A DNA stretch of 64,000 bases from a virus (lineage: Duplodnaviria; Heunggongvirae; Uroviricota; Caudoviricetes). The stretch lies in IMG/VR virus record IMGVR_UViG_3300038360_000413. One strand, 5' to 3'. The first letter of the stretch is position 1. Each line of letters begins with the position of its first letter. Below the pieces are notes generated by a model. That model was not told the origin of the DNA and ran no database searches. It saw only the letters and a program-made list of their open reading frames with translations. This document shows, piece by piece, positions 23,120 to 60,484 of this stretch. The position numbers and the translations under genes were made by a program.

Positions 23120-23132
23120 TATAGGATACAAA

Positions 23133-32859: not shown

Positions 32860-32870
32860 CATAAAATTAA

Positions 32871-32964: not shown

Positions 32965-33513
32965 ATGAGAACACGTACACTTGTTATTAATAAAAGTTAT
33001 ATGGCTTTACACGTAGTAGATTGGCAAAGAGCAATGACTTTAGTATGTAAAGGTATAGCGGAAAGAGTTGAAACCCATACGGAGGGACACTTACGAACGA
33101 CAAGTGGAGGCGTTAGTAAAGAATGGGGAATGCCAGCAGTCATACGACTTGTAGATTTCAACTTTCCACCAAAAGGCGGACAACAATACCAACGTCTTAA
33201 TAAGCATAATTTATGGATGAGAGACGGAGGTAAATGTGTATATTGCGATATAGACTTAAGCACACACAATATGACTGCAGATCATGTTATTCCTAAAAGT
33301 AAAGGTGGCAAAAAATCTTGGGATAATCTAGTATGTTCTTGTAAGAAGTGTAATGGCAAAAAAGGAGATAAAACTCCAGTACAAGCTAATATGCCTTTGA
33401 AAAAGAAACCATATGCACCAACTCTGAATGCATCTTTATCTATTAAGATAAGGAAAGAAATCAGTCTTTATAAAATAGTCCCTCAAACTTGGAAACCCTA
33501 CATTTTTTGGTAA
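32965..33513 (+). CDS. HNH endonuclease
   Basis: CVYCD...ADHVIPKSKGG...CSCKKCNGKKGDK HNH-N motif. Confidence 0.65.
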   Translation: MRTRTLVINKSYMALHVVDWQRAMTLVCKGIAERVETHTEGHLRTTSGGVSKEWGMPAVIRLVDFNFPPKGGQQYQRLNKHNLWMRDGGKCVYCDIDLSTHNMTADHVIPKSKGGKKSWDNLVCSCKKCNGKKGDKTPVQANMPLKKKPYAPTLNASLSIKIRKEISLYKIVPQTWKPYIFW

Positions 33514-33522
33514 AAGACTTTT

Positions 33523-33598
33523 GCGCCTGTATGCCGCTCGGTTACGAACCGAGAGAAAGCTAATTGGACACATACAGGTTCGACTCCTGTCAGGCGTA
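33523..33598 (+). ncRNA. atypical 76-nt tRNA-like gene: anticodon-arm hairpin (loop TTACGAA, ACG) 7 nt after the acceptor; D-loop-like AGCTAATTGGA after it
   Basis: Acceptor GCGCCTG/CAGGCGT and T-arm ACAGG-TTCGACT-CCTGT are perfect, but arm order is non-canonical. Confidence 0.35.
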
Positions 33599-33656
33599 CA
33601 AATAAAACAGAGAAAATAATAAATAACAAATAATAGGTTTTACCGGGAGGACTTAC

Positions 33657-34340
33657 GTGAAAGTACAGTTGGAATCAAAAGAAAGACTGAAAACCTGTAC
33701 AAAATGTAAGACCAAAAAACCTACAACCGAATTTCATAAAAAAACATCCGCAAAAAGCGGATTGTGTTCACATTGCAAATCTTGTGTAAAAAAATATAAT
33801 GCTGAACATAAAACTGAGATAGCCGAACGCGGTCGAAAATATCGTGTGAAACATAAAGTTGAAATATGTAAAAGAAAACAAAAATATCATGCTGAGCATA
33901 AAACTGAAATAGATAAAAAAAATAAAACATATTATATAAATCACAAAGTTGAAATAGCTGAGCGTAAGCGCAAATATAGAATTAAACATGCAGTAGAAAT
34001 AATCGAAAATCGACGAAAGTATTGTATTAAACATAGTGATAAAATTATAGAACAGACTCGAAAATGGCGAAAGAATAATCGAGATAAACATGCAGCAATA
34101 CAAGCAAAAAGAAGAGCAAATAAAATAGCTCAGACTCCAGTTAATGCCGACATGAAGAAGATCGGTGAGTTTTATACTGAAGCACGTCGGCTAACCGAAG
34201 AAATCGGAATTCCCCACGAAGTTGATCATATTATACCGATAAGTAAAGGAGGACTTCATCACGAAGATAACTTACAGATCCTAACGAAGTCGGAAAATTG
34301 TCGGAAAAGCGATAAACTTCCCGAAGAATTAGAAAAATAA
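33657..34340 (+). CDS. HNH endonuclease with N-terminal K/R-rich repeats
   Basis: C-terminal HEVDHIIPISKGG...NLQ HNH motif; repeated KYRVKHKVEI units. Confidence 0.55.
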   Translation: MKVQLESKERLKTCTKCKTKKPTTEFHKKTSAKSGLCSHCKSCVKKYNAEHKTEIAERGRKYRVKHKVEICKRKQKYHAEHKTEIDKKNKTYYINHKVEIAERKRKYRIKHAVEIIENRRKYCIKHSDKIIEQTRKWRKNNRDKHAAIQAKRRANKIAQTPVNADMKKIGEFYTEARRLTEEIGIPHEVDHIIPISKGGLHHEDNLQILTKSENCRKSDKLPEELEK

Positions 34341-36547: not shown

Positions 36548-36618
36548 ACGGAGGTAGCTCAACAGAAGAGCGATGGGTCGCTCCCTGCGTGCTGGTTCAA
36601 ATCCAGCCCTCCGTGCCA
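36548..36618 (+). ncRNA. tRNA-like gene with truncated anticodon arm, CCA encoded
   Basis: Acceptor ACGGAGG/CCTCCGT, D-stem GCTC/GAGC, T-arm GCTGG-TTCAAAT-CCAGC, G-CCA; only 18 nt where anticodon arm plus variable should be. Confidence 0.35.
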
Positions 36619-36758
36619 AATTCGCTGGCTATTTTATTGCTTCCTTCTAAACGCCCAGTGGGCACTTGAATAAGGATCAAACAAAAAACAGTAATAAAGA
36701 TTTCCAGCAAACAATTCGTTTGGCTATATGATAGTTTCCTTCCATAATTTGCCTTAAA

Positions 36759-36830
36759 AGCAAGCGGTTGCGGGTTCGAGTCCCGTCACCATCTTCGGGT
36801 GGTGTAGCTCAATTGGTAGAGCTCTTAATC
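36759..36830 (+). ncRNA. permuted tRNA-like module U1
   Basis: T-arm GCGGG-TTCGAGT-CCCGT, CACCATC-TTCG-GGTGGTG closed acceptor, D-arm GCTC-AATTGGTA-GAGC. Confidence 0.45.
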
Positions 36831-37138
36831 CAACTGTCGTGATTTCCAAACACCCTTTTACTAGATCGTTTAATAAGTACGCTTCGTACTTAGAGATACT
36901 TGCAAAAGATCTTCAACGTAAAGAACTTCTCTTCGATGTCCTGACGGGACATCAGAGAAATTCACAAAGACCTCGTACAAACCCCGGCAACCAGGACTTT
37001 TCCTTCCAGATTCATGAACTCTCTACGAGTGTCCATCAAATCGTTACAGGAAACTACCTGGTGCCAGCTTTGTACATAGCCTTTTAGTAGTAAACAAATT
37101 TCGTTTGGCTATTTATAAACTTCCTTCTATAAACGCAA

Positions 37139-37209
37139 TCCGGGGGTCACAGGTTCGAATCCTGTCAGGCTGCTTCGGCGGTCTGTAGCTCAGTTGGCAG
37201 AGCACCGGA
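37139..37209 (+). ncRNA. permuted tRNA-like module U2 (best preserved)
   Basis: TCCGG (anticodon 3' strand), GGGTC variable, ACAGG-TTCGAAT-CCTGT T-arm, CAGGCTGC-TTCG-GCGGTCTG closed acceptor, D-arm GCTC-AGTTGGCA-GAGC, CCGGA (anticodon 5' strand). Unit closed by GTTTGG (37103) pairing with CCAAAC (37238). Confidence 0.55.
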
Positions 37210-37289
37210 CTTTAAAGTAACCCAGTTTATAAGATTTCCAAACACCCTTTTTATATTTGTTGGCCATATAATATGCTTCCTTCTATTAT

Positions 37290-38853: not shown

Positions 38854-38928
38854 ACGAGTGTCGATTTAACTGGCTAAGTCTGCGGATTCCAAACCCGTTA
38901 ATTCAAGGTTCGAATCCTTGCACTCGTG
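38854..38928 (+). tRNA. tRNA-Trp (anticodon CCA)
   Basis: Acceptor ACGAGTG/CACTCGT, D-stem GATT/AGTC, loop TTCCAAA, T-arm CAAGG-TTCGAAT-CCTTG. Confidence 0.55.
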
Positions 38929-38945
38929 CTAACAAAGGAAGAATT

Positions 38946-41633: not shown

Positions 41634-41638
41634 GAATA

Positions 41639-42028
41639 ATGATAGGAACACTTGTAGTTACAAAACTTTCAATGTTAGGAAATCCTGCAGGATCTGTAGG
41701 AATATGTTACGACACATATAACCTTGGAACAAAATCAGATGGTAATTGTTTTATCTTTGAGAACGGCAATTATGATGGCTTCTCAAATGAAGAAAAAGAA
41801 GTCATGCTAACTAAAGTGGGACAGGCTCCTGATTTTTCATATACATTTGAGCATGTCATGACATTATCAAGAGATTTTGACAATGACAAGTTTAAAGCAG
41901 CTTTCGCAGTTGCAAGAACAAAAGCAAAACATTTAAAATACTTGAAATCAGAGGCCGGAGCCAGTAACAATGATGGGTACGTTCAGCAAGGTTGTAAAGA
42001 AAAAATCAAAGAAATAACTACATGGTAA
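41639..42028 (+). CDS. hypothetical protein
   Basis: 129-aa ORF. Confidence 0.4.
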   Translation: MIGTLVVTKLSMLGNPAGSVGICYDTYNLGTKSDGNCFIFENGNYDGFSNEEKEVMLTKVGQAPDFSYTFEHVMTLSRDFDNDKFKAAFAVARTKAKHLKYLKSEAGASNNDGYVQQGCKEKIKEITTW

Positions 42029-43369: not shown

Positions 43370-43750
43370 GGGGGCGCCCGGTATCGATTATTATACGACG
43401 CGAGAATGGCTCAAGCAGAGTTATTGGCTTAACCAATTAAAACAAACAACTGGCAAAACGCAGTTCGCATTAGCGGCGTAAAGTAACATTTACGGTTATC
43501 GCTCACGTTCTTCTTCTTGACTCCGATAGTTCTGAAGAGCGTCATTTATCGGATCTGTCCAACTGTTTGGGGACGAATAAATAAAGGCACAGCGTTCCAA
43601 AGGTAAAGGGAAGTACGATAACTAATAATAGAGCTCCCGAGATCATTTGTTCTTTTGATTACCTCGTAAACATTGCAAAAGAAATAAGCTTGTAAACAAC
43701 CACCTTGATACTATAATAAGACGGGAGTTCGACTCTCCCCGCCTCCACCA
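43370..43750 (+). ncRNA. ssrA: tmRNA (SsrA)
   Basis: 5' GGGGGCG pairs with CGCCTCC 375 nt downstream, followed by A-CCA. T-arm GGGAG-TTCGACT-CTCCC. Internal tag reading frame GGC AAA ACG CAG TTC GCA TTA GCG GCG TAA (..KTQFALAA*) at 43452-43481. Confidence 0.8.
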
Positions 43751-46410: not shown

Positions 46411-46617
46411 ATGAATAAAAAGAAGCAAAAAGCACTCAATAATCTCAGAACACAAATGGGGTTTCCAAATTCCGACATTCTTGGCGGAAAAAAGAGATTA
46501 GAGAATCAAGTGCGCACAATGCTTGAACGCTCTTTTGAAAAAGAAAGCGAACCTTCTAAAGTTATTGATCAATTTATGGAAACCTTCAAAAAAGAAGTAA
46601 TTGACTTTTGGGCTTAA
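46411..46617 (+). CDS. hypothetical protein
   Basis: 68-aa ORF. Confidence 0.35.
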   Translation: MNKKKQKALNNLRTQMGFPNSDILGGKKRLENQVRTMLERSFEKESEPSKVIDQFMETFKKEVIDFWA

Positions 46618-47321
46618 CCCTCATAGGCTTTTAATATTTTTGCGATTAAACCATGTCGTACAATATCTTCTCTAGTAAATTCCAAAGTACCTATTTCATT
46701 TAAAGCACTAAGACGTTCTATAGCGTTGCGTAATCCGTTATCGTATCCTATATCTGATTGTCTAATATCCCCGGCTACAATCATTTTTGAATCCTGCCCT
46801 ATACGGGTTAGAAACGCTTTCATACTAGACTGGGAGGAGTTTTGTGCTTCGTCATATACAATGACAGCGTTATCCCAAGTAAGTCCTCTAAAAAAAGTTA
46901 ATGGAACTTGTTTAATTACACCTGAAGCTCTTAATGTTTCAGCACGATCGTTTCCAATTAACTTTTCTAAATTTTGAAAAAACGGAAGCATAAAAGGTCC
47001 AATTTTATCATCCAAGTTTCCTTTTAAAAATCCAACTCTTTCATCATCTACCGGAACAAGCGGACGACATAATACAATTTGCTCAATGTTGTTGTCTTTA
47101 CTTGATAACGCTTGTAAGGCATATCACATAGTAATAAACGTTTTGCCAGTTCCTGCGGGACCTGTGCAAAATGTTATGTCATGGGTATCGATTGTGTCAA
47201 ATAATAACTTTTGGTTATCAGTTTTGAACTCTAATGATAGTCCATGGTCAGAACCATTTTTGGGATAAAATAATCTTCTCACCTGTTCGAGGGCTTGTCG
47301 TTTGTTTTTACATTCTTGCAT
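46614..47321 (-). CDS. phoH: PhoH-like ATPase interrupted by a single in-frame TGA (47124-47126)
   Basis: N-terminal fragment ends GPAGTGKTFITM-TGA; the same frame continues YALQALSS...LDDKIGPFM into the C-terminal ORF (VIVYDEAQN, IVAGDIRQSD). Confidence 0.6.
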
Positions 47322-47332: not shown

Positions 47333-47923
47333 TTAACGATTATTGGGTTTTTTATATGTATAAATGGGCACCTCTCTGTTACTTACAAGATTAGGTGACC
47401 TTGCTGGTCGTGGAACACTTGGAGTTGTGTTAATAGTTGGTGGTGGTGGTGGCGGCGGTTGTAAATGCGGCTGCAGTATTACCGACGGCTGTATCTGAAC
47501 ACTCGAATTAATTACATTGGGTTTTATTTTTATAGGTTTTTCGGGAGCAGGAGTAGGCTCTTTAGCTGTTTTTACTGTCTCTGCAAGAAACTTATGACAA
47601 TCTAAATATTTTTGGTAGGAGTCAACTAAGACTAATCCATAATATAATTCCGGATCATTTCCCTTGTATGGTCCAAGATGTTGAACTTCATCCCATCCGG
47701 AAAGAGCATCTATAGTTTTTATGATGCCAGTATTGTATCCTCAACTTTTGTTGGGATGATGGGTAATAATGTGGCATTTAGCGTCATTTGGTAGAAGAGT
47801 CATTTTGCCATCTAACACTTCAGCATTAATCTCATAACGACGCCAAACAATTTCGTATGTGTCAATTTTTTCAAATAATGGCATATAACATAATATACAG
47901 ATTCCTTCTGTCAATTCAAACAA
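47333..47923 (-). CDS. hypothetical protein with in-frame TGA (47741-47743)
   Basis: 60-aa ORF ...HHPNKS-TGA continues in frame for 136 more codons ([19 protein letters not shown]...PPPPPP...) to TAA at 47333. Confidence 0.45.
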
Positions 47924-47943: not shown

Positions 47944-48819
47944 ATGCCAGATCCATATCAAGTACTGGGGCTCGACAGCACAGCTACTAAAGAAGAAGCA
48001 CAAAAAGCATTTAGAAATCTTGCTAAAAAATACCATCCTGACAAATCAGCCACTCTTAGTGAAGAAGCCCAACAGGAAGCAGAAGCTAAATTCAAAGAAA
48101 TTAACGAAGCCAACGAGCAAATTCAAAATCCTGAACCAAATCATGATATCCTTAATAACTCTTTTTGGAAACCACCGATTCAGCCTATACAGGAAGTACA
48201 TTTTGTAAATGTATCTCTTAAAGACGCTTATCATGAAAAAACCATAGCCTATCAGTATTATCAATACAACAAAGATCAGGTAAAAAGATGTGATACTTGT
48301 GGAGGAACTGGAACAATAGAAACACGAGAACAACATGGCCAAATGATAGCGATCAGCCAGAAACCTTGTAGCGGGTGTAATGGGAGAAAGATAAAAAAAA
48401 CAGGTACTCCTAAAAAAGTTGATTTAGAAATTCATTTGCAAAACAACTTACCAGCTCATTTAAACTTAGGACTAATTGGCAGCTACGATCCCAACTTTGA
48501 TAGACCGGCTCAGCTCATAATACAGTTTCAATATTCTCATGATGAAGAAAAATATCCTTATGAAATTCGTAATGGCAACATTATAACAAGTAAAGATATT
48601 AAGGTTAGTGAGTGGTTAGAGGGTGCTTCTCATACAGTAAGTATCTTTGATAAACAATTCGAAGTTAAATTAAAGGCTAGAAAGGACTTACAAAAACTTA
48701 GTAAGCTTCAGGGGCAAGGATTTGCAGGTAGAGATGTTTTAATACAATTTAAAATAATGGCTAATGACAAATTAGCATCTGATGCACTACTCAAAATGTT
48801 AAAAGAAGAAGGACTTTAA
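47944..48819 (+). CDS. DnaJ-like protein (J-domain plus Cys-rich zinc finger)
   Basis: DPYQVLGL...KKYHPDK J-domain with HPD; CDTCGGTG...CSGCNG. Confidence 0.6.
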
Positions 48820-48823
48820 AAGA

Positions 48824-48856
48824 GAAGAGGGCAAACCACCCTCTTCTTTTTTTTAT
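48824..48856. terminator. bidirectional rho-independent terminator
   Basis: GAAGAGGG-CAAACCA-CCCTCTTC hairpin flanked by A/T tracts between convergent genes. Confidence 0.6.
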
Positions 48857-48864: not shown

Positions 48865-51800
48865 TTAATAAAATTCACCCTTTTCATATTTAGTATTTCT
48901 TCCAAAGTTATCTCCATAGATATAAGCAGGTATCGGATCCTTACCTTTAAGGTTAGCATATAACCCTTTAGCTGCTCCAACAGTTAGCCCAGCTTTAACT
49001 CTGTTCGTACTGATTCTAGTTAACCAATCGTCAACATCTGTATTAAGAGTTTCTATAGATTTGAAGTAAGGAACATATTCAACTCTTTCTAATCCCTCTG
49101 CTTTACGTTTTTTATTAACAAATTTTATATTACTTACAGTCGTCTTATCACCACGTAGAAATCCGCTTTTTTCAGGAGCTTTAGTTACTTCCGCATTATC
49201 TGAAATTCCACGAATTACTGTTTCAAAAGTCTTTTTAAAGAAGTTGCCTCCATAAACCTTATGTGCTTCATCTACTAAATAACGTTGAGCAACTAAATGT
49301 CCTTTTAACTCTCCAAGTTCTTGTGGTTTGATAATGCCGTCACTTAGTACATCACCTTTGTCAATTTGATCATTTACTTTAATTAAAGGCAATCTACCAG
49401 AAGGAATTGTAAAGTCCTTATCATTCGCAGTACCATATCCCTCTATTCGTACATTATATCCGCCAGTCAGGTTCTTATCTATTTTCTTCACCTTTCCTCG
49501 TACAGTAGAAAGAGTAGCTTTTCCTGGTAATTTAACAGGAACTTTTAATAACTGCTCAAGACGAGGAAATCCAGCTTGAATTCCGCCTCCAGCAAGTGCT
49601 GATCCTCCGCTATGGAAGGATTGCATAACTAACTGTGTAGATCTTTCTGTAACGGATTGACTTTCTAAAACTCCAACATTGGTTCCCACAGAAGCAGGTT
49701 GTCCGTTTGGCATTAATCCATAACAGGATTGACATATACCTTCGACAGCCTCACAAGTCAAAGGACTGCGAACATATAATTGTACGCGATTTCTTTTTTT
49801 CGCTTTTCCAACAAGCGTAGAATCTACGATATCGTTTCGTTTACCAATTCCTGTTATTGTTTTTGCCAAATATCTATCTAGTACATCTGGAGAGTCTGTT
49901 TGTATATAAATTCCCTTTTTAGTATCACAATCTTCAACAGTAATTAGTAAACGACGAGTAACATTAAGAAGTGCCTTGTTGAGTGCTCCAGAATCCTGAG
50001 TATTTACAGCTCTATCTACAGTACCTTTACGCACAGCGTATAGCGTTGAATAATAAGAAGCTGTATCCAATCCTTCTCCATATGATTTTAATACAGGATA
50101 TGGAATTGGTTTGCCATGGACATCTGTCAGCACACCTGGCATAGAAATAATTTGTCGAACCGAATCCGGTTTACTAAACGATCCAGAACGTAACATAGTG
50201 AAAATATTGTTTTTTGATTTACTAAACTTCTTATTTTGAGCATCCTGAATTTTCAATGTCATTGCGTTTAGTTTCTTAATTCTATTTTCACCCTTAAATC
50301 TATTTATAGCAGGAAGTTCTTTTTCAATAATAGCATTTCTGTAAGAACGATCTACATCAAAATCTTTTATGGAAATAGTATTTGTATTTCTGTAAGCATA
50401 CATCGCGCCTAGATCCTTCCAAGATTCAATCACATCAGAGAAGTATTTATTATAACTCTTTGCAAGAGTTGTAAGTAATTTGCTAATAGTTTTTTTGTCC
50501 ATAGCACGATCATACTCTTTTAACTTGTCTGGAAGTTCGTGATTAATAAGATATTGACCGATAGTCATTTCTTTTCCATTTAAGAAAAACTGTTCAGTCC
50601 AGGAAATTTTAGCCTTCTTAGCAGCTTGAATGGTTTTATATTTTGCATCAGTTTTTTTAGTAATTAAACTTAACTGGTATAATCCATAAATATATTCTTG
50701 ACCCAATCCAGGCACTACAGAGTTATCTCCATGTTTAAATAAGATTTTACTAGGATACATATGACGAGCTTCAGCAATAGCTTCAGGGCCAACGGGTGTC
50801 ATAATCGACATTGTATCGCCATCATGATCTAAATTTAATCCTGCGTGAATTAACGAATTAACAGCAATAGCTTTTCCTTTTATTAAAACAGGTTTGAATG
50901 CTTGTATACTATGTTTATGTAAAGACGGAGCTCTATTTAATATAACAGGGCGTTTTCTAACAGCTTCTTTTAAAGCATTCCAAGCTAACGGTGATTCCTC
51001 TTCGTAGTTCTTTAAAGCTGCAACTGCTTTTAATCCAGATTGCTTTAATTCCTGTATAACAAAAGGTCTAAACATTTTATAAGCTAGCTTTCTTGGAATT
51101 CCAACTTCATCCAACCCTAAACTAGGTTCTACGGTTATAGTACTTCTAGCACTTACATCTTGTCGCTTAGACCATGTCTTGCCCTGTATTAGCCCAACTT
51201 TTGGCTTACCAATTTCTTTTAATATACCTTTATACTGCTCACCACCATAAGTAGTAGGCTCAATGAACCCCTGCATAGCTTTAACCGTGTTATATAGCGA
51301 GTATTCTGCTAAATCAACATCTTCCTTCGTTAAGTCCTTTTTAGCTCTTAACAAGCTTGTATTGATAATTCCAATATCTCTATAATGTTTATTAATATCA
51401 CTTACAGCTAAATCACCAGAAGGTAATGGCACTGTAGGTCGATATACTGGAGGAAGTACTGGAACATATTTCATTGTATAAGCTTCTTCTGGTCTTAGTT
51501 TAAGATCCTTTAAAGCTCTTAAATATTTTGCCAAAGTGTTTAACTTGTTTACATTGGTAGGAGGTGCGCTTACTAATTCATCAGTTACTGACAATAATTT
51601 AGAGTCTACTTTAATTGCACTTAATGCTGCAATAATTGCTTCCATTCCAGTTAGTTCATTTAGCTTTTCTTTACCTTCAAGAATATCTTCAAAACGTTGT
51701 TGTGTTAAACCAAGTATTTTCATGATCGCATCAGCATACATAGGATTAGAAATTCTAGAAGCCAGCTCAATGTGTGACCAATGTGTTCCTCTTACACCGC

Positions 51801-53526
51801 CAGTTATTTCACGATCGTATAGTCCGCCTTTTCGTGCAGTTAAATTCTTACCAATTAACAAAGCACCAGGATCAAGTAGCTTACCGTTTGATTTCTTTAA
51901 AACATCCTCATCAGTAAGTGGAGAGATGCGAAGTTGATTTCCTTTCTTAGTTATGTTTACACCAAGTCCTTCAATGTAATTTAACATTTTATCAAAAACA
52001 AAATTTCTTGCCGGCTTTGGAGGAACTAATCCAAATTGAATACTTCTCCAGTATTCCTCATTAGCTCTACCTTTTATTTCTCCAATTTCTTGTAAGTTCT
52101 TTTTTGCCCCATGAGCTAAGTATCCATATGTTTCCATCGTACCAACAGTTTGAGCACCTTTGCCGACCGGCTGCTCGTCAATATCGTAAGTACCTAAGTT
52201 TCTTACACCTTGTTTTTTCTTAACTATGTGACGCAATTTCATGAAGTACTGCTTACCAACAAAAATTGGCTTAGCGAAAGCTTTGCCGGATTTACCGTCT
52301 GTTAATATTTCGTCTGGCTCAATTCCATGCTTTTTTAAATCATTTATTACAGTCTGAGTCACATCCTCATCTGGATCTCTAAAGTTATCTACAATATAAG
52401 GCTTTCCAGTTTTAGCAGCTATTTTGCCAGCCGCTGTTTCTAAAATTTGCCCAATATTCATTCGAGAAGGTACACCGTGTGCGTTTAGCATTATGTCAAT
52501 AGGAGTACCATCCTCTCTATGTGGAGCTTCAGAATCGCCAATAATTTTAGTTACAATATATTTATTTCCATATCGTCCGGAATTTCCAGTCCAACTTGTT
52601 TTACCATTACGTCTTATATACACAACACCATTTTCTGTAGTAGGACAACCAACTTTTCCTGAATATTGTATAATTTCTTCAATTTGACCGTTTTGTTGGT
52701 GTACATGGCCATGGTTTACTTGGGGATAGTTTTTAGTACGAATTTGTCTTACATTCCATATATCATAATTTACTGCATTTCCCATCATGGTATCGCCCGC
52801 ATTAGCAACTTTTTGATAGGTAGCACTTTCTCCGACCTTTAAAAATAACTCCATAAGATCATCACGCATCTTAACACTACTAGTAGTAATAACAGCTTGA
52901 TTAGTTTTGTTAATATGACCGTCCCCTTTGATATAAGCATCTAAAAAATATTGTATTATTCTTGGGGAAGCATTTTTTATATTCTGAGGAACAAATTTTT
53001 CATGAGCATGACCAAAAGGTTTTAAATATAAATGAATAGCTTTACCATTAAAACGTATTCTATCTTTACAATAAATAGGAGTGAACCCACAATCTCTTAC
53101 CAAGACTGCAATCTCATCATAATATTCTTTATGTATAATGGGACTTTGGCAAATATCAGTTACATATCCGTTTGAAGTTTTGCAACTAGAACCTTCAGAT
53201 AAGTACCACCCCATTAGAGAGGCATATTCGAAAGTATCCATTTGTTTATCAAATTCTTTTGGAACTACTTTTTTCTTACTTTTCCAAGTTCCATTTTTAA
53301 CATAACGTACTCTTTTTCCTTTAATTTGATCAGGTTTTAAAAATTCATATTTTTTACTATAACGTTTTTTTACATACATTTTATGATCAAGAGTTACAAG
53401 TTGATCAATTAAAGTATTTGCAATGTGATACATAGGTCCTTCATGTTCATATAAATTAATAATAGAAGGTTCTTGATATTCAATTTTATGTGTTTTAGGA
53501 TTTAACGTACAAAATTCATCTTTCAT
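48865..53526 (-). CDS. rpoC: RNA polymerase: intein C-part, beta-subunit C-terminal region, fused to full beta' subunit
   Basis: Beta' catalytic motif NLDHDGD, trigger-loop and clamp regions; N-terminal 315 aa are intein sequence followed by SGRYGNKYIV...VPSRMNIGQILE (RpoB C-terminal region). Confidence 0.8.
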   Translation of the reverse strand: MKDEFCTLNPKTHKIEYQEPSIINLYEHEGPMYHIANTLIDQLVTLDHKMYVKKRYSKKYEFLKPDQIKGKRVRYVKNGTWKSKKKVVPKEFDKQMDTFEYASLMGWYLSEGSSCKTSNGYVTDICQSPIIHKEYYDEIAVLVRDCGFTPIYCKDRIRFNGKAIHLYLKPFGHAHEKFVPQNIKNASPRIIQYFLDAYIKGDGHINKTNQAVITTSSVKMRDDLMELFLKVGESATYQKVANAGDTMMGNAVNYDIWNVRQIRTKNYPQVNHGHVHQQNGQIEEIIQYSGKVGCPTTENGVVYIRRNGKTSWTGNSGRYGNKYIVTKIIGDSEAPHREDGTPIDIMLNAHGVPSRMNIGQILETAAGKIAAKTGKPYIVDNFRDPDEDVTQTVINDLKKHGIEPDEILTDGKSGKAFAKPIFVGKQYFMKLRHIVKKKQGVRNLGTYDIDEQPVGKGAQTVGTMETYGYLAHGAKKNLQEIGEIKGRANEEYWRSIQFGLVPPKPARNFVFDKMLNYIEGLGVNITKKGNQLRISPLTDEDVLKKSNGKLLDPGALLIGKNLTARKGGLYDREITGGVRGTHWSHIELASRISNPMYADAIMKILGLTQQRFEDILEGKEKLNELTGMEAIIAALSAIKVDSKLLSVTDELVSAPPTNVNKLNTLAKYLRALKDLKLRPEEAYTMKYVPVLPPVYRPTVPLPSGDLAVSDINKHYRDIGIINTSLLRAKKDLTKEDVDLAEYSLYNTVKAMQGFIEPTTYGGEQYKGILKEIGKPKVGLIQGKTWSKRQDVSARSTITVEPSLGLDEVGIPRKLAYKMFRPFVIQELKQSGLKAVAALKNYEEESPLAWNALKEAVRKRPVILNRAPSLHKHSIQAFKPVLIKGKAIAVNSLIHAGLNLDHDGDTMSIMTPVGPEAIAEARHMYPSKILFKHGDNSVVPGLGQEYIYGLYQLSLITKKTDAKYKTIQAAKKAKISWTEQFFLNGKEMTIGQYLINHELPDKLKEYDRAMDKKTISKLLTTLAKSYNKYFSDVIESWKDLGAMYAYRNTNTISIKDFDVDRSYRNAIIEKELPAINRFKGENRIKKLNAMTLKIQDAQNKKFSKSKNNIFTMLRSGSFSKPDSVRQIISMPGVLTDVHGKPIPYPVLKSYGEGLDTASYYSTLYAVRKGTVDRAVNTQDSGALNKALLNVTRRLLITVEDCDTKKGIYIQTDSPDVLDRYLAKTITGIGKRNDIVDSTLVGKAKKRNRVQLYVRSPLTCEAVEGICQSCYGLMPNGQPASVGTNVGVLESQSVTERSTQLVMQSFHSGGSALAGGGIQAGFPRLEQLLKVPVKLPGKATLSTVRGKVKKIDKNLTGGYNVRIEGYGTANDKDFTIPSGRLPLIKVNDQIDKGDVLSDGIIKPQELGELKGHLVAQRYLVDEAHKVYGGNFFKKTFETVIRGISDNAEVTKAPEKSGFLRGDKTTVSNIKFVNKKRKAEGLERVEYVPYFKSIETLNTDVDDWLTRISTNRVKAGLTVGAAKGLYANLKGKDPIPAYIYGDNFGRNTKYEKGEFY

Positions 53527-53589
53527 ACTTATTTCTTCTAAAAACTTTCAACCATCGTATGTTAAAAATTCAGTATCTGCACTAACACA
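52582..53589 (-). mobile_element. intein with LAGLIDADG homing endonuclease inserted in rpoB (contains in-frame TGA at 53548-53550)
   Basis: N-terminus CVSADTEF directly after extein GDKL; LAGLIDADG blocks LMGWYLSEGS and FLDAYIKGDGHI; C-terminus ...WTGN followed by +1 Ser. Host site corresponds to E. coli RpoB GDKMAGRHGNKG. Confidence 0.6.
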
Positions 53590-55929
53590 AAGTTTATCAC
53601 CCTCCTTGAAAGGGTGTTTTGATTTTATATAAATATCAATATTTCTACCGTTTATAGCCACATCAGTTACCACGCCTACATCATCCTCATCCCACTCAAT
53701 GACTCTTTTTTTATATTGATTATAAATAAATTTGTTTAATCTTTTTAAAGCACGTTCATTATCATCCAAATCTTTGGTTTCTAAAAGTGCAATAATAGTG
53801 TCACCAGGGTTCACAGTTTGCCCTACTTTAATAACTCCATTTTCTCCTAACTTTTTTTGATTGTCAGGAGTTAAAGTGCCAGGATACCAAGCAACAAATT
53901 TCTTTAAATCAAAAATCGTAAGCTTAGGAGAAAAGAAATGATTTATTTTATGTAGCATACTGTGACTTAATTTTTTAGCAGCGCTTTCAGTTATAACAGT
54001 TCCATCCTCAAAGTTATAACCCTTGTATGCCATATATGCTGTTGTTAAATTTTTACCCAAGGATAAAACACGTCCAGATGAATAATTATTTTCAGCTAAA
54101 GGAGTATCAGACTTAACCTCATCTCCCACTTTGACCGCTGGAGTAGAGTTTAAATATCCATCTTGATTAAGTGGAAAGTTATTATATAATCCTCTCTTTA
54201 TTTCTTCTCCATTTACATCAATATGAACATAATTTTTAGTAATTTTAGTAACAGTTCCTTTTTGCTTTTTACCAGCTTTGTTTGTGCCCAGCACGGGATT
54301 TAAATAGTTACCTAAGAGACTTTCATAAGTTGAAGAGTCATCTCTGCGTACTTGTACTAAAGGCGCCTCTTTCTCGTCGAGGGCCATGGCTTGTGTAACC
54401 ATTCGTGCAGCGGTAGCAGCACGGTTGCCCTGTACATTTTGTATGAAAGGTACTAAATTAGTAGCAAAAGAAAACATAGCCTTAGGAGAACGCATCCAGT
54501 AAGTTACTCGATCTGGAGTAATTTGCTCAAGCTTTCCTTTATACATAACTTTAACCGCTTGTTTTCTAGCTTTTGGTTTTGCCTTTACCAGTTCAAATTG
54601 ATCAGGATAGGCAACATAATTATTATAATATGTCAATGGATTAATATGAATTAGTTTACCTTCATTAGTATAGACAGGAGTTTTAAGATCAGTACCGTGT
54701 TTCTCAACTTCTGACGGCAATCCAATCGTTAATCCAACTTTTCCTGACTCCGGCGTCGATAAAACATCCAAGAATCCTAAGTGAGTTGGTTGTACTGAGC
54801 GCGCATCCATAGTCACAGCATGTCGACTTTTAATACCGCCCGTACCCATTGGAGTGGTTTTACGACGCTCACTTACAATTGTGACAGGGTTGGTTTGAGG
54901 AGGAGTAGAGGTCATATCTCCTGTAGTAAAGAACTCTTTAATCGCTTTGGTAAAAATACCAGCACTAATAATCTCCCTCACGTTGTCCTTTAATCGCATA
55001 CTACGTGCAACTTTCTTTTTTAAAGGCTCCTGACGAGTTTTAAAGTGCTCAACTAATAAATCATCGACACCTAATATTTTTTTAAAGATTAAACTATCTC
55101 TTTCGTCCGGCTTATCTTCGCTGCGCTGAATTTTTAATAACTTTAAAGATGCTGCTAACAATGTAGCCGCGTTAACCTTTTCATAAGATTTGCCTAAAGT
55201 TATTTTTGTTGTTTCAGGATCTACTTCTGTGTATTCATTAAAATACTTTTGTAAGCCTACAATAACTTCTCTAAAATCTTTAGGCTTGTTTTTAAATAGT
55301 TTTGTATAGATAGAGGTCATCTCTGATGCCTCAGTGTTTAAAGCGCCTGCAATGTTTTTGGCCAACAATTCCTCTCCCCAAGCCTTGGAAATGGAGTCTC
55401 GTGAAGCTCCCAATAGATTGAGTAAAGTCCATAAACGATATTTTCGATTAGATAAGATTAAGAAAAACTTTTCACTATGCGGATCTAATTGCATTTTAAA
55501 ATTAAAGCCTTGTGATAAATTAAATTCGCTTTCTAACTCTCCGTTTTGTTTTACTCTGGAATAAATGCCGGATTTACGACGTAGCTGGTTTACAGTAATA
55601 TATTCATTGCCGTCTATAATAGTGGTAAATCTGTTTGTAAGCTTTGGAACTGATCCAATTTTTGCTTTTGTTTTTTTACTAATAGTTTTTCCAGTTTTAA
55701 TATCAATTAAAGAAATATCAGCGTACATAGGCATCTGCCAGCTCTTTCTATTTAGTTTGGTTTTCTTTTGTAGCGGAAAATCGGCGGTAGGTAAAGTATC
55801 GTCTATCAATACATTAGAAATTTCTAAACGACGACCATTGGCTTCTATTGGAAAGTCGGTTTCTATTGCTTTTTTGATGGCTCTTTTTATTTGAGTATTT
55901 TGAGTATCATGTCTTAATGAATTGTCCAT
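53548..55929 (-). CDS. rpoB: RNA polymerase beta subunit, N-terminal about 780 aa, ending 13 aa into the intein at a TGA
   Basis: RpoB-like sequence through ...HPFKEGDKL then CVSADTEFLTYDG-TGA; same frame as the downstream ORF. Confidence 0.75.
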   Translation of the reverse strand: MDNSLRHDTQNTQIKRAIKKAIETDFPIEANGRRLEISNVLIDDTLPTADFPLQKKTKLNRKSWQMPMYADISLIDIKTGKTISKKTKAKIGSVPKLTNRFTTIIDGNEYITVNQLRRKSGIYSRVKQNGELESEFNLSQGFNFKMQLDPHSEKFFLILSNRKYRLWTLLNLLGASRDSISKAWGEELLAKNIAGALNTEASEMTSIYTKLFKNKPKDFREVIVGLQKYFNEYTEVDPETTKITLGKSYEKVNAATLLAASLKLLKIQRSEDKPDERDSLIFKKILGVDDLLVEHFKTRQEPLKKKVARSMRLKDNVREIISAGIFTKAIKEFFTTGDMTSTPPQTNPVTIVSERRKTTPMGTGGIKSRHAVTMDARSVQPTHLGFLDVLSTPESGKVGLTIGLPSEVEKHGTDLKTPVYTNEGKLIHINPLTYYNNYVAYPDQFELVKAKPKARKQAVKVMYKGKLEQITPDRVTYWMRSPKAMFSFATNLVPFIQNVQGNRAATAARMVTQAMALDEKEAPLVQVRRDDSSTYESLLGNYLNPVLGTNKAGKKQKGTVTKITKNYVHIDVNGEEIKRGLYNNFPLNQDGYLNSTPAVKVGDEVKSDTPLAENNYSSGRVLSLGKNLTTAYMAYKGYNFEDGTVITESAAKKLSHSMLHKINHFFSPKLTIFDLKKFVAWYPGTLTPDNQKKLGENGVIKVGQTVNPGDTIIALLETKDLDDNERALKRLNKFIYNQYKKRVIEWDEDDVGVVTDVAINGRNIDIYIKSKHPFKEGDKLCVSADTEFLTYDG

Positions 55930-55987: not shown

Positions 55988-56347
55988 AATGTTGAAGGGC
56001 ACTTGTATTTTTTAACCCTGACTTTAATATACTAAGTTTTGGGTTTTCAGTCAACGAAAAACAAGGGGGTAAAAGATGTGATTTTAAAAAGACAAATTAC
56101 ACCAGAAATTGAAGAAGACGAAGAAGGCGTTAACGAGGAGATTTACGTACATCCTAAAGAACGCTAACAATCGAAAAAATTATTATGTGAAAAGGTGTGC
56201 TATACAGGTACACCTTTTCTTTACCTTAATCAGAGAATGAGATGAAAGACTCACAAATAAGACAACATGTAACTAATTTAGTAGATGCAGTTAAAGATCT
56301 ATTTTTAGATATATTTTACCCTGGAAACCAAGAGGAAAAAGAAGAAA

Positions 56348-56709: not shown

Positions 56710-57861
56710 ATGACAACTCAATTAGACAAATTTAAAAACGTAGAAAAACAACTAAACTCCTATTTCGTAGAAAGATTAGACGAAATTAGAGGATTGACAT
56801 TAGCACTATTGTCACAAAATAATGTGCTATATTTGGGACCTCCGGGAATATCTAAATCTTATTTAGTTAAAGCATGGTCTATGTGTATACAAGGTGCGAA
56901 CTACTTCGAACATTTGCTTACAAAATTTACAGTACCAGATGAACTTGCAGGACCTTTTTCACTAAGTGGATTAGAGAATGACAAGTTTATTAGAAATACT
57001 ACAAACATGCTCCCGGAGGCTCACATTGCTTTTCTAGACGAAATCTGGAAAGGAAATAGTGGGGTTCTAAACTTCTTATTAAAATTAGCAAACGAACGCA
57101 CCTTCTTTAATAATGGTGAAGAATGTGAAACTCCAATCTTAACAATAGTAGGAGCTTCAAACGAAATACCAGAGGACGATGACAACTTAGAAGCTTTACA
57201 GGATCGATTTATTATAAAGTTTATGGTAAAAGCAATCCAGGAACAGGAAAATTTTATTAAGATGGTATCAAGTGATGATTTTGTCGCAGAGACCTTCTTA
57301 ACTTTAAATGACATAGAAGAAGCACATACGCAAATTGCAAAAGTAAAAATGCCAAAAGAAATGTCAGAATTATTGTATGAAATTAAAGTAGAATTGAAAA
57401 ACGACGAGATAGTAGTTACCGACAGAACTCTAAAAAAAGCAGTTAACATTTTAAAATCCGAAGCTTGGCTAGACGGCTCTAAAGAGGTCAACGAAGATCA
57501 CTTTGATTGTTTGCAACATGTTCTTTGGACTGATCCAGATCACTCTCAAAAAACTGCAACAAAGTTATTTGGATTAGTAGATCCAGCACGCAGCAAGATG
57601 CTTGCAATAATGGATGATTGCAAAGATTTGTTCGCCGATTTAAGTAAAAAGAAAAAAGCGGAAACCAAAGAAGATTTACAAGAAATCATGGAAGGAATAG
57701 TTAAACTAAAAGCTGCTAAAGTAAGACTTACTGAGTTGTACAAAGAAGCAGTAAAAGCAAAAAACAGAAAGAAACAGCAAAAGACGGCTGAGCAAATGAT
57801 TAAACAAGTAAATGTTATGGTTGGAAAACTTGCTTCGTATGTTGGGTTTGATGATGTATGA
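56710..57861 (+). CDS. MoxR-like AAA+ ATPase
   Basis: Walker A LGPPGISKS, Walker B AFLDEIWK, MoxR-like length. Confidence 0.65.
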   Translation: MTTQLDKFKNVEKQLNSYFVERLDEIRGLTLALLSQNNVLYLGPPGISKSYLVKAWSMCIQGANYFEHLLTKFTVPDELAGPFSLSGLENDKFIRNTTNMLPEAHIAFLDEIWKGNSGVLNFLLKLANERTFFNNGEECETPILTIVGASNEIPEDDDNLEALQDRFIIKFMVKAIQEQENFIKMVSSDDFVAETFLTLNDIEEAHTQIAKVKMPKEMSELLYEIKVELKNDEIVVTDRTLKKAVNILKSEAWLDGSKEVNEDHFDCLQHVLWTDPDHSQKTATKLFGLVDPARSKMLAIMDDCKDLFADLSKKKKAETKEDLQEIMEGIVKLKAAKVRLTELYKEAVKAKNRKKQQKTAEQMIKQVNVMVGKLASYVGFDDV

Positions 57862-59366
57862 GACGTATAGATCATAAATTTTATTTAAAAAGAATTAAGA
57901 ATTCTAAATACACAATCAAGCACGATAATTTTGATTTGATAAATTTTCAACAATTGATAAGTGTTAATCCTGAGATGACTAAAGAATTTCTGCTTATGAA
58001 AGATGAATACCCACAGATGCAGGAATTACAACAGGATATTTTTAATTCATTATATAAATACAACCCAACAAAGTTAAAAGACCATGAAATCAATTACGAT
58101 TATTGGCTCAATGCTAACGTAATGGATGCTATTATGAAAAGTAAGCAGTACAAAGAGCTTAGAAGCTTAACCAGATTGGATAAGTTAAATTCCGCAACGG
58201 GAACAAAAATATTATCCACAGAAGCCAAAGATATAATAGAAAATATTCAAGAACGAAGTAAAAAAGCAATGGAAGCTGCGCAACAAGCATATCTTACTGC
58301 TAAGCAACTTGGCGGCAGTGGTAAAAGCACTAAAGCCCAAGGTGGAGAACAACTAACACTTACAGAAGCTATCGAGCGATTACGAGAAGCTGAAAAAGAA
58401 CTTAAAAGTAAGTTAATGACTCCAAAAGAACAGAGGGTAATGGCTCGTGCACTTACTACAGTGGTAAGCAAAACAAAAGAGTCTTCGGATTTAATAACAG
58501 ATTGGGGTTTACAACAATCAGACTCATTTACACGTGTAGGATATCAAGAACAGCTACAGCTAATAAAAGAGTTACAAGAAAATCCAAAACTACGAGCAAT
58601 TGCAGCTCTTATGGGTAGATATAAAAGAATGATTTTAGCTCAAAAACATACTAAAATCAAAAGAGGTTCTGATAGCCTATATGACATTACCTTAGGCAAT
58701 GACCTGGGAAAAGTTATACCTTCAGAAGCTATGAAATTGAAAAACCCCATAACTCGGAAAGTGTTTATTAAGCAATACTATGAAAAGAGTTTACTGCAAC
58801 ACGAATATGAAGGAAAAGTAAAGAAGCATAAAGGAGCTATAGCTATAGCTATCGATGAATCAGGCTCTATGGACGGAGATAAAGAAATTTGGGCAAAAGC
58901 GTTAGCACTTGGTTTAATGGAAATTGCCAGAATGCAAAAAAGAAATCTATTTATAGTACATTTTAATGCAAACGATAAAGAAGTACTACGAGTAGATACA
59001 TTTCTAAAAACCGATCCCTATGACATAAACAAAGTTATCGATTGTGCCACTTATTTTGCTTCAGGAAGCACTAGATTCAGTCCAGCATTAGATTTGTGCC
59101 GAGATCGAATAAACCTGGAAACAGAGTTTTCTACAGCAGATATAATTTTAATCACAGATGGCTCATCCGCAGTTCTTCCAGAATGGGCGACTGCCTTTAA
59201 CACATGGAAAAAAGAAAAAAAAGTTAATACTTATGGAGTAATAATTGATTTCGGATATAGCACAAAAACTGCTATAAAAGATTTTATAGATGACATAACA
59301 CGTATGTCTTCTTTTACTTCAAAAGAAAAAGATCAATTTATGTTCAAAATGATGAACAATTTGTAA
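57858..59366 (+). CDS. vWA-domain protein (MoxR partner type)
   Basis: MIDAS motif AIDESGSMDG in the C-terminal third; gene overlaps the AAA+ stop. Confidence 0.6.
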   Translation: MRRIDHKFYLKRIKNSKYTIKHDNFDLINFQQLISVNPEMTKEFLLMKDEYPQMQELQQDIFNSLYKYNPTKLKDHEINYDYWLNANVMDAIMKSKQYKELRSLTRLDKLNSATGTKILSTEAKDIIENIQERSKKAMEAAQQAYLTAKQLGGSGKSTKAQGGEQLTLTEAIERLREAEKELKSKLMTPKEQRVMARALTTVVSKTKESSDLITDWGLQQSDSFTRVGYQEQLQLIKELQENPKLRAIAALMGRYKRMILAQKHTKIKRGSDSLYDITLGNDLGKVIPSEAMKLKNPITRKVFIKQYYEKSLLQHEYEGKVKKHKGAIAIAIDESGSMDGDKEIWAKALALGLMEIARMQKRNLFIVHFNANDKEVLRVDTFLKTDPYDINKVIDCATYFASGSTRFSPALDLCRDRINLETEFSTADIILITDGSSAVLPEWATAFNTWKKEKKVNTYGVIIDFGYSTKTAIKDFIDDITRMSSFTSKEKDQFMFKMMNNL

Positions 59367-59376
59367 GAAAACGTCA

Positions 59377-59551
59377 CAGTTATAGTAATAGCAACGTATG
59401 CGCAAGTATATTAAACAAGTGCGAATCGTACTTGACAGCTAAAGTAATAAATCAACAAAGCAGGACTGATCCTGAAGCAAGCTTCAGGCCGTCTAAAGAC
59501 GGCGGAACGGGCTATGGAGCCTATCCGACGTCACATGTATAACTGCATTAA
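59377..59551 (+). ncRNA. candidate retron msr/msd ncRNA region
   Basis: Inverted repeats CAGTTATA (59377) and TATAACTG (59538) flank perfect hairpins CCTGAAGC-AA-GCTTCAGG and GCCGTC-TAAA-GACGGC, immediately upstream of the RT gene. Confidence 0.45.
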
Positions 59552-59563
59552 TCACAGAAAAAA

Positions 59564-60484
59564 ATGAACTTATATGAACTATTGGAAACGACTAAAGAGC
59601 AATTAGAAACAATACTTGCTAACAAACATGAACATTATAAATCGTTTCCTATCGCCAAATCAAGTGGCAAATTAAGATGGTTAGATGCTCCTAGCGAGGA
59701 GTTGAAAGCCATACAATCTCAGTTACTAAGAAAAGTGTTTTACAACTTTGCCCCGCATTCAGCCGCTGTAGGTTTTAGAGTGGGCATAGGAGTGCGAGAT
59801 GGCGCCGAAAGACACTTAGGAAACAAAACGTTACTATGTATGGATTTGAAAGACTTTTTCAATTCTATTACATATAATAACGTCATCAAATTACTTTATT
59901 TTCTGACAGATAAACTAAAGAAACACATACCAGAATGGACATACACAGCAGATGACATTGAAACAATGGCAAAGCTGGTTACATACCACAAAGCACTACC
60001 ACAAGGAGCGCCGACAAGTCCAGCTTTGGCTAATTTAGTTTGTTGGAAACTAGATCAAGAGCTAGAAAGACTAGCAAAAGAAAATTCCCTAATATATACT
60101 AGATATGCAGATGATCTGGCATTCAGTCACAAGGACAGTAAATATGACATTCATCCCTTAATTGAAACAATTACAAAACTTATAGAGGGTGATGAGGTAA
60201 CTAATCTACTAGTTAATACCAAGAAAACACGCATTACTAGACCACATCGACGTATGACAGTCACAGGTGTAGTAATAAATGATAAGCTTAGTTTAGCTAA
60301 AAGCTTTAGAAAAAACTTAAGAGCTAGAATTCATAATATTAAAAAATCAGGTATTACAATATCTGAAAAAGAATCAGAAGTAATTAGAGGTCATGTAGAG
60401 TGGATATACTCAATAAATCCCCAAGAGGGACAAAAATTCCGTCAGGCCTTCTCCGGCATTTCAAAGGAGTCCCAGACGACTTAA
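59564..60484 (+). CDS. reverse transcriptase, retron-type
   Basis: RT motifs LPQGAPTSPALANL (QGxxxSP), YTRYADDLAFS (YADD), and retron-typical VTG (RMTVTGVVIND); 306 aa. Confidence 0.75.
   Translation: MNLYELLETTKEQLETILANKHEHYKSFPIAKSSGKLRWLDAPSEELKAIQSQLLRKVFYNFAPHSAAVGFRVGIGVRDGAERHLGNKTLLCMDLKDFFNSITYNNVIKLLYFLTDKLKKHIPEWTYTADDIETMAKLVTYHKALPQGAPTSPALANLVCWKLDQELERLAKENSLIYTRYADDLAFSHKDSKYDIHPLIETITKLIEGDEVTNLLVNTKKTRITRPHRRMTVTGVVINDKLSLAKSFRKNLRARIHNIKKSGITISEKESEVIRGHVEWIYSINPQEGQKFRQAFSGISKESQTT

Follow-up and report, generated by a model that had tools for sequence, protein, structure and literature searches.

A single-chain bacterial-type RNA polymerase gene of a tailed phage with an intein in the active-site loop and a TGA codon probably read as tryptophan

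Gene layout of the locus

The window analyzed here, a 64,000-nucleotide stretch of a tailed-phage genome (Caudoviricetes; IMG/VR record IMGVR_UViG_3300038360_000413), carries an RNA polymerase (RNAP) locus on its minus strand at positions 48865-55929. Two open reading frames (ORFs) lie there in one shared frame, 53548..55929 (793 amino acids [aa]) and 48865..53526 (1,553 aa), and the only break between both is one TGA codon at 53548-53550. Read through this codon, the frame has 2,355 codons, that is, 2,354 sense codons (with the TGA as Trp) and a terminal TAA at 48865-48867. A 7-kb frame with one stop cannot have arisen by chance. Pfam finds Rpb2_3 and Rpb2_6 in the upstream part of the gene, LAGLIDADG_3 in the middle, and the continuation of Rpb2_6 followed by Rpb1_1, Rpb1_2, Rpb1_4, and Rpb1_5 in the downstream part. 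Once a 336-aa insert is removed, the product is 2,018 aa long. A nucleotide search with the 7-kb gene matched nothing among GenBank phages. The parts of the gene are listed in Table 1.

An earlier note on this DNA, made from the letters alone, had proposed a bacterial-type RNAP with an intein-split rpoB and a fusion of the C-terminal part of rpoB to rpoC. The type of polymerase is confirmed by the Pfam Rpb2/Rpb1 series and by the database matches described below. A 336-aa LAGLIDADG intein that follows GDKL, ends in TGN before Ser, and gives way to SGRYGNKYIV had been placed exactly, and the frame does run stop-free into beta' (NLDHDGD) and does hold an in-frame TGA at codon 14 of the intein. 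The splitting of rpoB, however, is not borne out: the intein is contiguous, the sole interruption is the TGA at the position of an invariant Trp, and the locus is one gene, not two. The proposed fusion is a natural one, but it involves the whole of beta and not its C-terminal part alone; because the TGA is taken to be Trp and the gene to be undivided, full-length beta is joined to beta'.

Full-length beta-beta' fusion in a family of phage polymerases

The protein is closest to the bacterial enzymes among known structures: in the PDB, its beta' part matches bacterial beta' at an E value of 1.9e-91, and its beta part matches bacterial beta at 6e-30, versus 5e-18 for archaeal Rpo2. The alignment of the beta part with a bacterial beta chain (PDB 6wvj_C; 1,193 residues) reaches residue 1171, ending ...YIEGLGVNITKKGNQ, and beta' homology begins at once thereafter, with a linker-free junction at about 51933/51934. 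The beta part keeps the lysines of GDK...GNK, and the beta' part keeps the catalytic Asp triad (NLDHDGD), the second Cys cluster, and FHSGG of the trigger loop; the NLDHDGD-type and GDK...GNK motifs are invariant or nearly so across the family alignment. Relative to Escherichia coli beta', the N-terminal Zn ribbon of beta' is absent between GGLYDREITGG and THWSHIELA. The protein is a compact single-chain bacterial-type RNAP core with the whole of beta fused to beta'. No alpha, omega, or sigma partner was found among the 44 ORFs of the 64-kb window that were scanned against Pfam.

When the spliced 2,018-aa sequence was used as query against a large protein collection, 265 proteins were found at E values of 1e-10 or lower, and the best 120 of them were analyzed. 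Single chains of 1,985 to 2,120 aa without a large insertion, which align with the query from end to end, make up 72 of these 120 best homologues. Identities reach 61%, the source contigs are up to 228 kb long, and at least one family member derives from Tara ocean data. A further 351 relatives of the RNAP were found in IMG/VR. The full-length beta-beta' fusion is the norm of a large metagenomic phage family with proteins of about 2,015 aa. Comparison with related genomes, a check suggested in the earlier note, thus shows a natural, family-wide fusion, and the view expressed there that a beta-beta' fusion is rare in phages gives way to its being the standard architecture of this family.

The closest cultured phages, at about 30% identity, are the Vibrio phages D69, D148, and D181 (187 kb) and Salmonella phage Arash (181 kb). 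All of them join beta to the first two-thirds of beta' and have a separate gene for the C terminus of beta', which lies about 0.6 kb downstream in D69 (L001 7539-8178) and about 4.8 kb downstream in Arash (L003). A free-standing homing-endonuclease ORF lies within the beta part of the RNAP gene of D181 (L002 4500-5450).

An intein in the active-site loop

The 336-aa insert (CVSADT...SWTGN) is placed exactly between GDKL and SGRYGNKYIV. The family consensus at this site is the uninterrupted GDKLSGRYGNK, and the intein is absent from most homologues. Nine homologues carry an intein at exactly the same site, with 30 to 67% identity to that of the window. Invariant in the nine alleles are C1, G13-W14-K15, the block-B His (H69), the E-G of motif 1, the G-D-G of motif 2, NHGH, and the W-x-x-N end (N336). 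A profile and Pfam search, as proposed in the earlier note, corroborated the nature of the insert: the allele profile matched PI-PkoII (6.8e-9), archaeal VMA inteins (1.6e-7), and the AceL NrdHF intein (6e-5) in the PDB, and the Pfam LAGLIDADG_3 score was 25.3 bits (cutoff, 22.5). An AlphaFold2 (AF2) model of intein residues 15 to 336 has a mean pLDDT (predicted local distance difference test) of 88.2. With this model, the top 16 Foldseek matches in the PDB are all endonuclease-containing inteins, led by TliVMA, PhoVMA, PI-PkoII, PI-PfuI, and PI-SceI with E values from 1e-15 to 1e-8. By sequence and modeled fold, the insert is a genuine class-1 Hint intein with an inserted LAGLIDADG endonuclease domain. 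The predicted ligated extein junction peptide is ...EGDKLSGRYGNK... / ...HPFKEGDKLSGRYGNK..., and the intein-free target of the putative endonuclease spans GGTGATAAACTT/AGTGGAAGATAT (here and below, an unspaced slash within a sequence marks the insertion point).

Insertions are common in this family. Among the 120 best homologues, 39 carry one to three insertions of 150 to 760 aa at recurrent positions, namely TPE/S (about residue 393), GDKx/S (residue 781, the site used in the window), GNK/S (about residue 789), AHGAx/ (about residue 940), DFDGD/T inside the catalytic motif (about residue 1369), and two adjacent sites in the trigger-loop region (about residue 1765). In this family, the RNAP gene is a hot spot for inteins, which occupy at least six sites and number up to three per gene. 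Examples are P0013, P0014, P0018, P0024, P0026, P0027, P0029, P0031 to P0033, P0037, P0060, P0091, P0095, and P0115; P0027 has three inteins and is 3,188 aa long. The same intein family also occurs in further phage proteins. Moreover, the RPB2 of a giant-virus metagenome-assembled genome (L005) has a 34%-identical intein at the homologous site, GDKF/C...WTGN/SSRHGQKG.

TGA at tryptophan positions

Within the intein, the TGA stands at codon 14 (CVSADTEFLTYDG*KFLEEI), one base (G to A) from TGG. Trp of the GWK motif occupies this position in nine of nine allelic inteins. The window is otherwise densely filled with standard-code ORFs. In the RNAP genes of relatives, in-frame stops were found at 11 of 82 loci, which represent 6 distinct genomes, all of the clade with 51 to 61% identity. 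The six genomes carry 26 such stops, and every one is TGA (TAA, 0; TAG, 0). Twenty of them fall in columns with a Trp majority among the 24 sequences without a TGA there (23 database homologues and the spliced protein of the window), and most of the others fall in aromatic columns. One of these genes (in L013) encodes P0041, which is N-terminally truncated in the database; the two in-frame TGAs upstream in the gene align with W64 (near-invariant in the family) and W184 (invariant) of the window protein. The RNAP gene is free of TGA in the relatives L019, L020, L022, and L032 to L034. An exact-pattern search of IMG/VR for the TGA context of the window itself gave no occurrence.

Two more genes of the window are interrupted in the same way (Table 1). 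The Pfam PhoH match of the PhoH-like gene (207 bits; profile positions 3 to 205 of 205) crosses its TGA, and the PhoH genes of relatives also contain TGA. In orf183, the TGAs of relatives stand at positions W14, W48, and W64. TGA is also scarce as a terminator: 76 plus-strand ORFs of at least 80 aa end in TAA (56), TAG (14), or TGA (6). Four of the six TGA-ending ORFs are antisense artefacts, and a fifth overlaps the ATG of the next gene and has a TAG two codons on. This leaves at most two credible TGA stops in about 72 plus-strand genes, for which the binomial probability is 0.0008 at an expectation of 15%.

Given the invariant Trp of the intein, the TGAs at Trp columns in relatives, the interruptions of PhoH and orf183, and the scarcity of TGA stops, we take the TGA to be a Trp codon and 48865-55929 to be one gene. 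The alignment of TGAs with Trp, and not with Gly, fits genetic code 4 rather than code 25. A comparison of coding densities under codes 4 and 11 was crude and noisy and lends weak support only. Selenocysteine at the TGA was considered and rejected because of the invariant Trp and the many TGA positions in relatives; no search for a hairpin resembling a selenocysteine insertion sequence (SECIS) was made.

A restricted set of recoded genes

The use of TGA as Trp is restricted to one gene set, comprising RNAP, PhoH, and orf183. In the six relatives, these genes together have 34 TGA and 66 TGG codons, versus 0 TGA and 90 TGG in MoxR, VWA, reverse transcriptase (RT), orf212, ClpP, and orf244 (Fisher's exact test, P = 2e-11). 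The window shows the same tendency, with 3 TGA and 20 TGG codons in the recoded set versus 0 and 195 in other genes (P = 0.001). Plus-strand auxiliary genes without TGA include those for RNA ligase, PNKP, NAD synthase, NAPRTase, NADAR, SPFH, PP2C phosphatase, thymidylate synthase, ClpP, and a DnaJ-like protein.

A TGA-free cluster on the plus strand (56710-60484) encodes a bpMoxR AAA+ ATPase (383 aa), a VWA protein (502 aa), and an RVT_1 reverse transcriptase (306 aa). This MoxR-VWA-RT cluster is divergent from the RNAP gene and is syntenic in relatives (L013 1218-4836).

Other features of the window

The RNAP gene and the DnaJ-like gene are convergent, and the hairpin between them (Table 1) is likely a bidirectional terminator. 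The sigma-70-like match about 100 nucleotides (nt) upstream of the RNAP ATG is a match to the consensus only, and the number of such matches in the region is not above the expectation from shuffled sequence.

Table 1. Positions of the RNAP gene, its predicted parts, and related features in the window
Feature	Position	Strand	Evidence or remark
Predicted complete RNAP precursor gene, beta(N)-intein-beta(C)-beta' in one chain	48865..55929	minus	End-to-end alignment with homologues of about 2,015 aa
N-extein, first 780 aa of the beta-like part, ends ...KEGDKL	53590..55929	minus	Pfam Rpb2_3, Rpb2_6; family alignment
Predicted intein, 336 aa, Cys1 ... SWTGN, then Ser+1	52582..53589	minus	Alleles, AF2 model, Foldseek
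In-frame TGA, intein residue 14, probably read as Trp	53548..53550	minus	Trp in 9/9 allelic inteins
Block B of intein, TLDH	53383-53394	minus	
LAGLIDADG motif 1 (ASLMGWYLSEGS; Glu and Gly invariant)	53188..53223	minus	
LAGLIDADG motif 2 (FLDAYIKGDGH; G-D-G invariant)	52915..52947	minus	Pfam LAGLIDADG_3
C-extein, C-terminal beta part, 216 aa, SGRYGNK...YIEGLGVNITKKGNQ	51934..52581	minus	Residues 926-1171 of 6wvj_C
beta' part, 1,022 aa, starts LRISPLTDEDV	48868..51933	minus	PDB beta' matches
Mg-binding catalytic motif NLDHDGD (family consensus NADFDGD)	50815..50835	minus	
Second Cys cluster of beta'	49717-49761	minus	
Trigger-loop FHSGG of beta'	49603-49623	minus	
PhoH-like gene with in-frame TGA at 47124-47126	46614..47321	minus	Pfam PhoH
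orf183, function unknown, in-frame TGA at 47741-47743 (NKS*GYN)	47333..47884	minus	
Sole tRNA-Trp in the window, anticodon CCA	38854..38929	plus	ARAGORN
14-bp G+C-rich hairpin with A-tract and T-tract	48818..48852		Between convergent DnaJ-like gene and RNAP gene
Sigma-70-like match TTGACT-17-TATATT, about 100 nt upstream of RNAP ATG	56026..56054	minus	Consensus match only

On the plus strand, 26 tRNA genes are interleaved with small ORFs at 17099-41293. One of them is an amber-suppressor-type tRNA(CUA) (32786-32860) that is conserved in a relative (L094 3093-3169). It is present though all in-frame stops seen are TGA and TAG is still a normal stop (14 of 76 ORFs). Two ORFs of 276 and 254 aa without a Pfam match (11794-12624 and 12637-13401; plus strand) share one frame, with a TAG and 12 nt between them; given the tRNA(CUA), TAG read-through joining them is possible. 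A transfer-messenger RNA (tmRNA) at 43370-43750 (plus strand; Rfam, 88.8 bits) has the tag GKTQFALAA, and a tmRNA is found near the RNAP gene in relatives too (L014 19911-20282; tag GRPAVKLAA). A G+C-richer noncoding stretch at 36548-37236 (plus strand) begins with a tRNA-like element (36548-36615; Rfam tRNA, 43 bits) and contains YrlA-like subthreshold matches at 36762-36829 and 37126-37236 (42 to 43 bits versus a gathering score of 69).

RNA-repair and NAD-salvage genes at 1016-3753, 11235-11792, and 21767-24590 encode a T4-type RNA ligase, a PNKP kinase-phosphatase, a second HAD_PNKP, NAD synthase, NADAR, and NAPRTase. Within 7720-9616, 13535-16467, and 32965-34340 lie two tandem SPFH/Band-7 proteins, a PP2C phosphatase adjoining a weak protein-kinase-like ORF, and two HNH endonucleases that adjoin the tRNA array.

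Relation to known systems

Natural rpoB-rpoC fusions occur in Helicobacter and Wolbachia, where they are head to tail and exploit the closeness of the beta C terminus and the beta' N terminus. These fusions are built from cellular subunits of full size (about 2,900 aa) and act together with alpha, omega, and sigma. In comparison, the phage protein is smaller by about 30% and has no N-terminal Zn ribbon in beta'.

Among phages, bacterial-type beta/beta' is likewise encoded by the mReC lineage, by Arash, and by Vibrio phages D69, D148, and D181, all with genomes of about 180 to 230 kb. The mReC enzymes were described as cell-like RNAPs of large environmental Caudovirales, in a paper that mentions neither fusion nor inteins nor recoding (PMC7481178); the present family resembles mReC by this description and may belong to its clade. 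The Arash and D69 proteins align over 70 to 96% of the window protein at about 30% identity. They have beta fused to the N-terminal two-thirds of beta', with the beta' C terminus encoded separately, whereas the window and the closer metagenomic family have the whole of beta' in the chain. In virion mass spectrometry, Arash gp206 and gp216 ranked first and fifth by spectrum count, and Arash virions also contain a sigma factor (PMC10585845).

Other two-barrel RNAPs encoded by phages are those of the phiKZ/AR9 type, gp66 of crAss-like phages, and YonO. The phiKZ-type enzymes are made of four to five polypeptides and are very divergent (PMC7824862); in AR9-like phages, introns and inteins are common in the RNAP genes. 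While gp66 and YonO have no detectable similarity to cellular beta/beta' (PMC7481178), the window protein matches bacterial beta' at an E value of 1e-91.

The earlier note had stated that an rpoB intein was described in some bacteria and phages; we found no such paper. The documented precedents are archaeal A'/A'' and the eukaryotic RPA2, RPB2 (a, b, and c), RPC2, and giant-virus RPO (RPO-a) inteins (PMC1635734). The eukaryotic and giant-virus RNAP inteins are likewise LAGLIDADG inteins at conserved active-site-proximal sites of the second-largest subunit, and several of them end in Gly-Asn or TGN. The host gene here differs in being a bacterial-type beta in a phage.

Stage-specific TGA-to-Trp recoding was described in phages of the Agate and Jade clades; in TGA-recoded phages, low G+C depletes TGA stops and in-frame TGAs build up in late modules (bioRxiv 10.1101/2021.08.26.457843). 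Shared features are the low G+C, the depletion of TGA stops, TGA at Trp positions in some modules, and relatives with and without recoding. Agate and Jade, however, are phages of the gut with recoding in structural and lysis genes, whereas here RNAP, PhoH, and one unknown ORF are recoded, TGA is sparse, no tRNA(UCA) was found, and tRNA(CUA) is conserved. In the papers that could be searched, none describes fusion, intein hot spots, or recoding for this RNAP family. Each element is already known in kind; what is new is that a single-chain phage RNAP, recoded codons, and an active-site intein occur together.

Weighing of the explanations

The explanation that we favor is as follows. In the infected cell, UGA would be decoded as Trp, so that a 2,354-aa precursor is made, consisting of beta (residues 1 to 780 of the spliced numbering), the 336-aa intein, the rest of beta (781 to 996), and beta' (997 to 2018). 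The intein would then excise itself and ligate GDKL to SGRYGNK, restoring the active-site loop of beta, which is conserved as GDKx(A/S)GRxGNK. The expected product is a 2,018-aa single-chain bacterial-type RNAP core in which the beta C terminus leads straight into the beta' N terminus, and the endonuclease domain may spread the intein to intein-free alleles of co-infecting relatives. If the recoding is stage specific, RNAP, orf183, and PhoH would become translatable only once UGA suppression is active. The resemblance of the recoding to that of the published TGA-to-Trp phages, which have their TGAs in late modules, suggests that the RNAP is a late product, and it may be packaged in the virion like its Arash homologues.

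Several points weigh against this explanation. (i) The window has only three in-frame TGAs, and the gene-set pattern rests mainly on relatives that are 51 to 61% identical. (ii) With ARAGORN at default settings, no tRNA(UCA) was found in the 64-kb window; the regions flanking the RNAP genes of 16 close relatives and the tRNA array (about 40 kb) of a relative with five TGAs in its RNAP gene also yielded none. Likewise, a release factor and a tryptophanyl-tRNA synthetase (TrpRS) are absent among the 44 window ORFs scanned against Pfam. The missing tRNA(UCA) does not exclude recoding, because it is detectable in just 35% of the published TGA-recoded phages (bioRxiv 10.1101/2021.08.26.457843). (iii) The penultimate residue of the intein is not His but Gly in the window (WTGN) and Cys in one allele (WSCN). 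Gly-Asn or TGN termini are documented for the Ceu ClpP, ThrRS, Pno RPA2, Cre RPB2, and EhV RPO inteins (PMC1635734), and this known variant does not exclude the insert from the inteins, but it can make splicing slower. (iv) Protein splicing and endonuclease activity are predicted from sequence, and virion packaging is extrapolated from Arash, whose protein is about 30% identical and has a differently split beta'.

With respect to the decoder of UGA, the only tRNA-Trp of the window has the anticodon CCA, and in the ARAGORN fold, A31-C39 at the base of its anticodon loop is unpaired. No tRNA-Trp was found in the array (about 40 kb) of the relative with five TGAs, where one tRNA (L145 8402-8474) is given an anticodon loop of 6 nt by ARAGORN ("anticodon cc"). 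The tRNA(CUA) is conserved in both genomes. Two candidate decoders in the window were rejected: a "tRNA-SeC(tca)" reported at a relaxed threshold (41637-41727) has a poor cloverleaf, lies at an ORF start, and has no Rfam tRNA match, and in the tRNA-like element at 36548-36615, the anticodon arm is shortened and offers no usable anticodon. A search of IMG/VR with the AAA ATPase of the window (30462-31451) for the tRNA arrays of relatives gave nothing.

The rival that deserves most attention accepts the same gene architecture and proposes that the host itself uses genetic code 4, with no release factor 2 (RF2) and a UGA-reading tRNA-Trp, so that the phage matches its host and no switch takes place. 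The near lack of TGA as a stop over the whole window, the failure to find a phage suppressor tRNA(UCA), release factor, or TrpRS, and the alignment of TGA with Trp and not Gly, which fits code 4 over code 25, would all agree with it. However, TGA is confined to RNAP, PhoH, and orf183, with 0 TGAs among 285 Trp codons elsewhere, and uniform A+T mutation pressure would not yield such confinement. TGG outnumbers TGA even in the TGA-containing genes despite a G+C content of 36%, and the TGA-free RNAP genes of the six close relatives listed above suggest a labile trait on the phage side. To our knowledge, there is also no code-4 host of phages of about 200 kb. We consider this rival unlikely, though well ahead of those that follow. 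If the TGA were instead a true stop, produced by recent nonsense mutation or by an error in sequencing, the gene would be a pseudogene or would be expressed through rare read-through by a near-cognate tRNA-Trp. A single G-to-A step from TGG suffices for this at a Trp codon, and the window encodes only tRNA-Trp(CCA); yet the 2,354 codons hold no other lesion, TGA at Trp recurs in two more genes of the window and in six related genomes without any TAA, TAG, or frameshift, and TGA is avoided as a terminator, which makes a true stop very improbable.

Two further rivals concern the intein. A split gene, in which ORF1 (the N-terminal part of beta and 13 intein aa) and ORF2 (starting at ATG 53526) are trans-spliced by a short-N split intein, is even more improbable. 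Its attraction lies in the position of the TGA, in the turn after the first intein strand, with an ATG 7 codons downstream, and near the split site of engineered short-N inteins. But a restart at ATG 53526 would remove WKFLEEIS, the conserved second strand, no clear Shine-Dalgarno sequence is seen before this ATG, and all nine allelic inteins are contiguous; the TGAs of relatives, moreover, stand at many positions outside inteins, so that TGA is no gene boundary. The earlier note had also considered a lineage-specific RpoB domain without intein blocks. Nothing was found in favor of such a domain, which we regard as scarcely credible: the insert is missing from most family members, all intein blocks and the fold of endonuclease-containing inteins are present, and the insert breaks the GDKxxGRxGNK active-site loop, which must be contiguous.

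Taken as a whole, with its two parts blended, the explanation that we favor is probable. Its core is very probably right: the locus is one gene in which TGA means Trp, the intein is genuine, and the fusion of full-length beta to beta' is shared across the family. For stage-specific gating of the recoded genes, we see the chances as about even. We infer the timing of expression, the virion packaging, and the decoder of UGA. A bolder and doubtful version of the favored explanation is that the polymerase is under two-gate control, first by UGA read as Trp for a dedicated gene set and then by splicing of the intein from the active-site loop, with UGA being read without a canonical tRNA(UCA). Candidate decoders would be the phage tRNA-Trp(CCA) with its unpaired A31-C39 or another noncanonical factor. 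If true, this would be a new mechanism of code switching.

Implications

Standard-code gene calling fragments this RNAP and its relatives (e.g., P0041), which affects the annotation and phylogenies of a deep-branching family. The allele common to the phage RNAP and giant-virus RPB2 bears on the movement of inteins between phages and eukaryotic viruses, and structural and engineering studies would find an attractive minimal model in the compact single-chain RNAP of about 2,000 aa, which has no beta' Zn ribbon. The presence of a polymerase in the recoded gene set provides a concrete, testable case for the timing of phage expression by stop-codon recoding and hints at a late, possibly virion-packaged enzyme.

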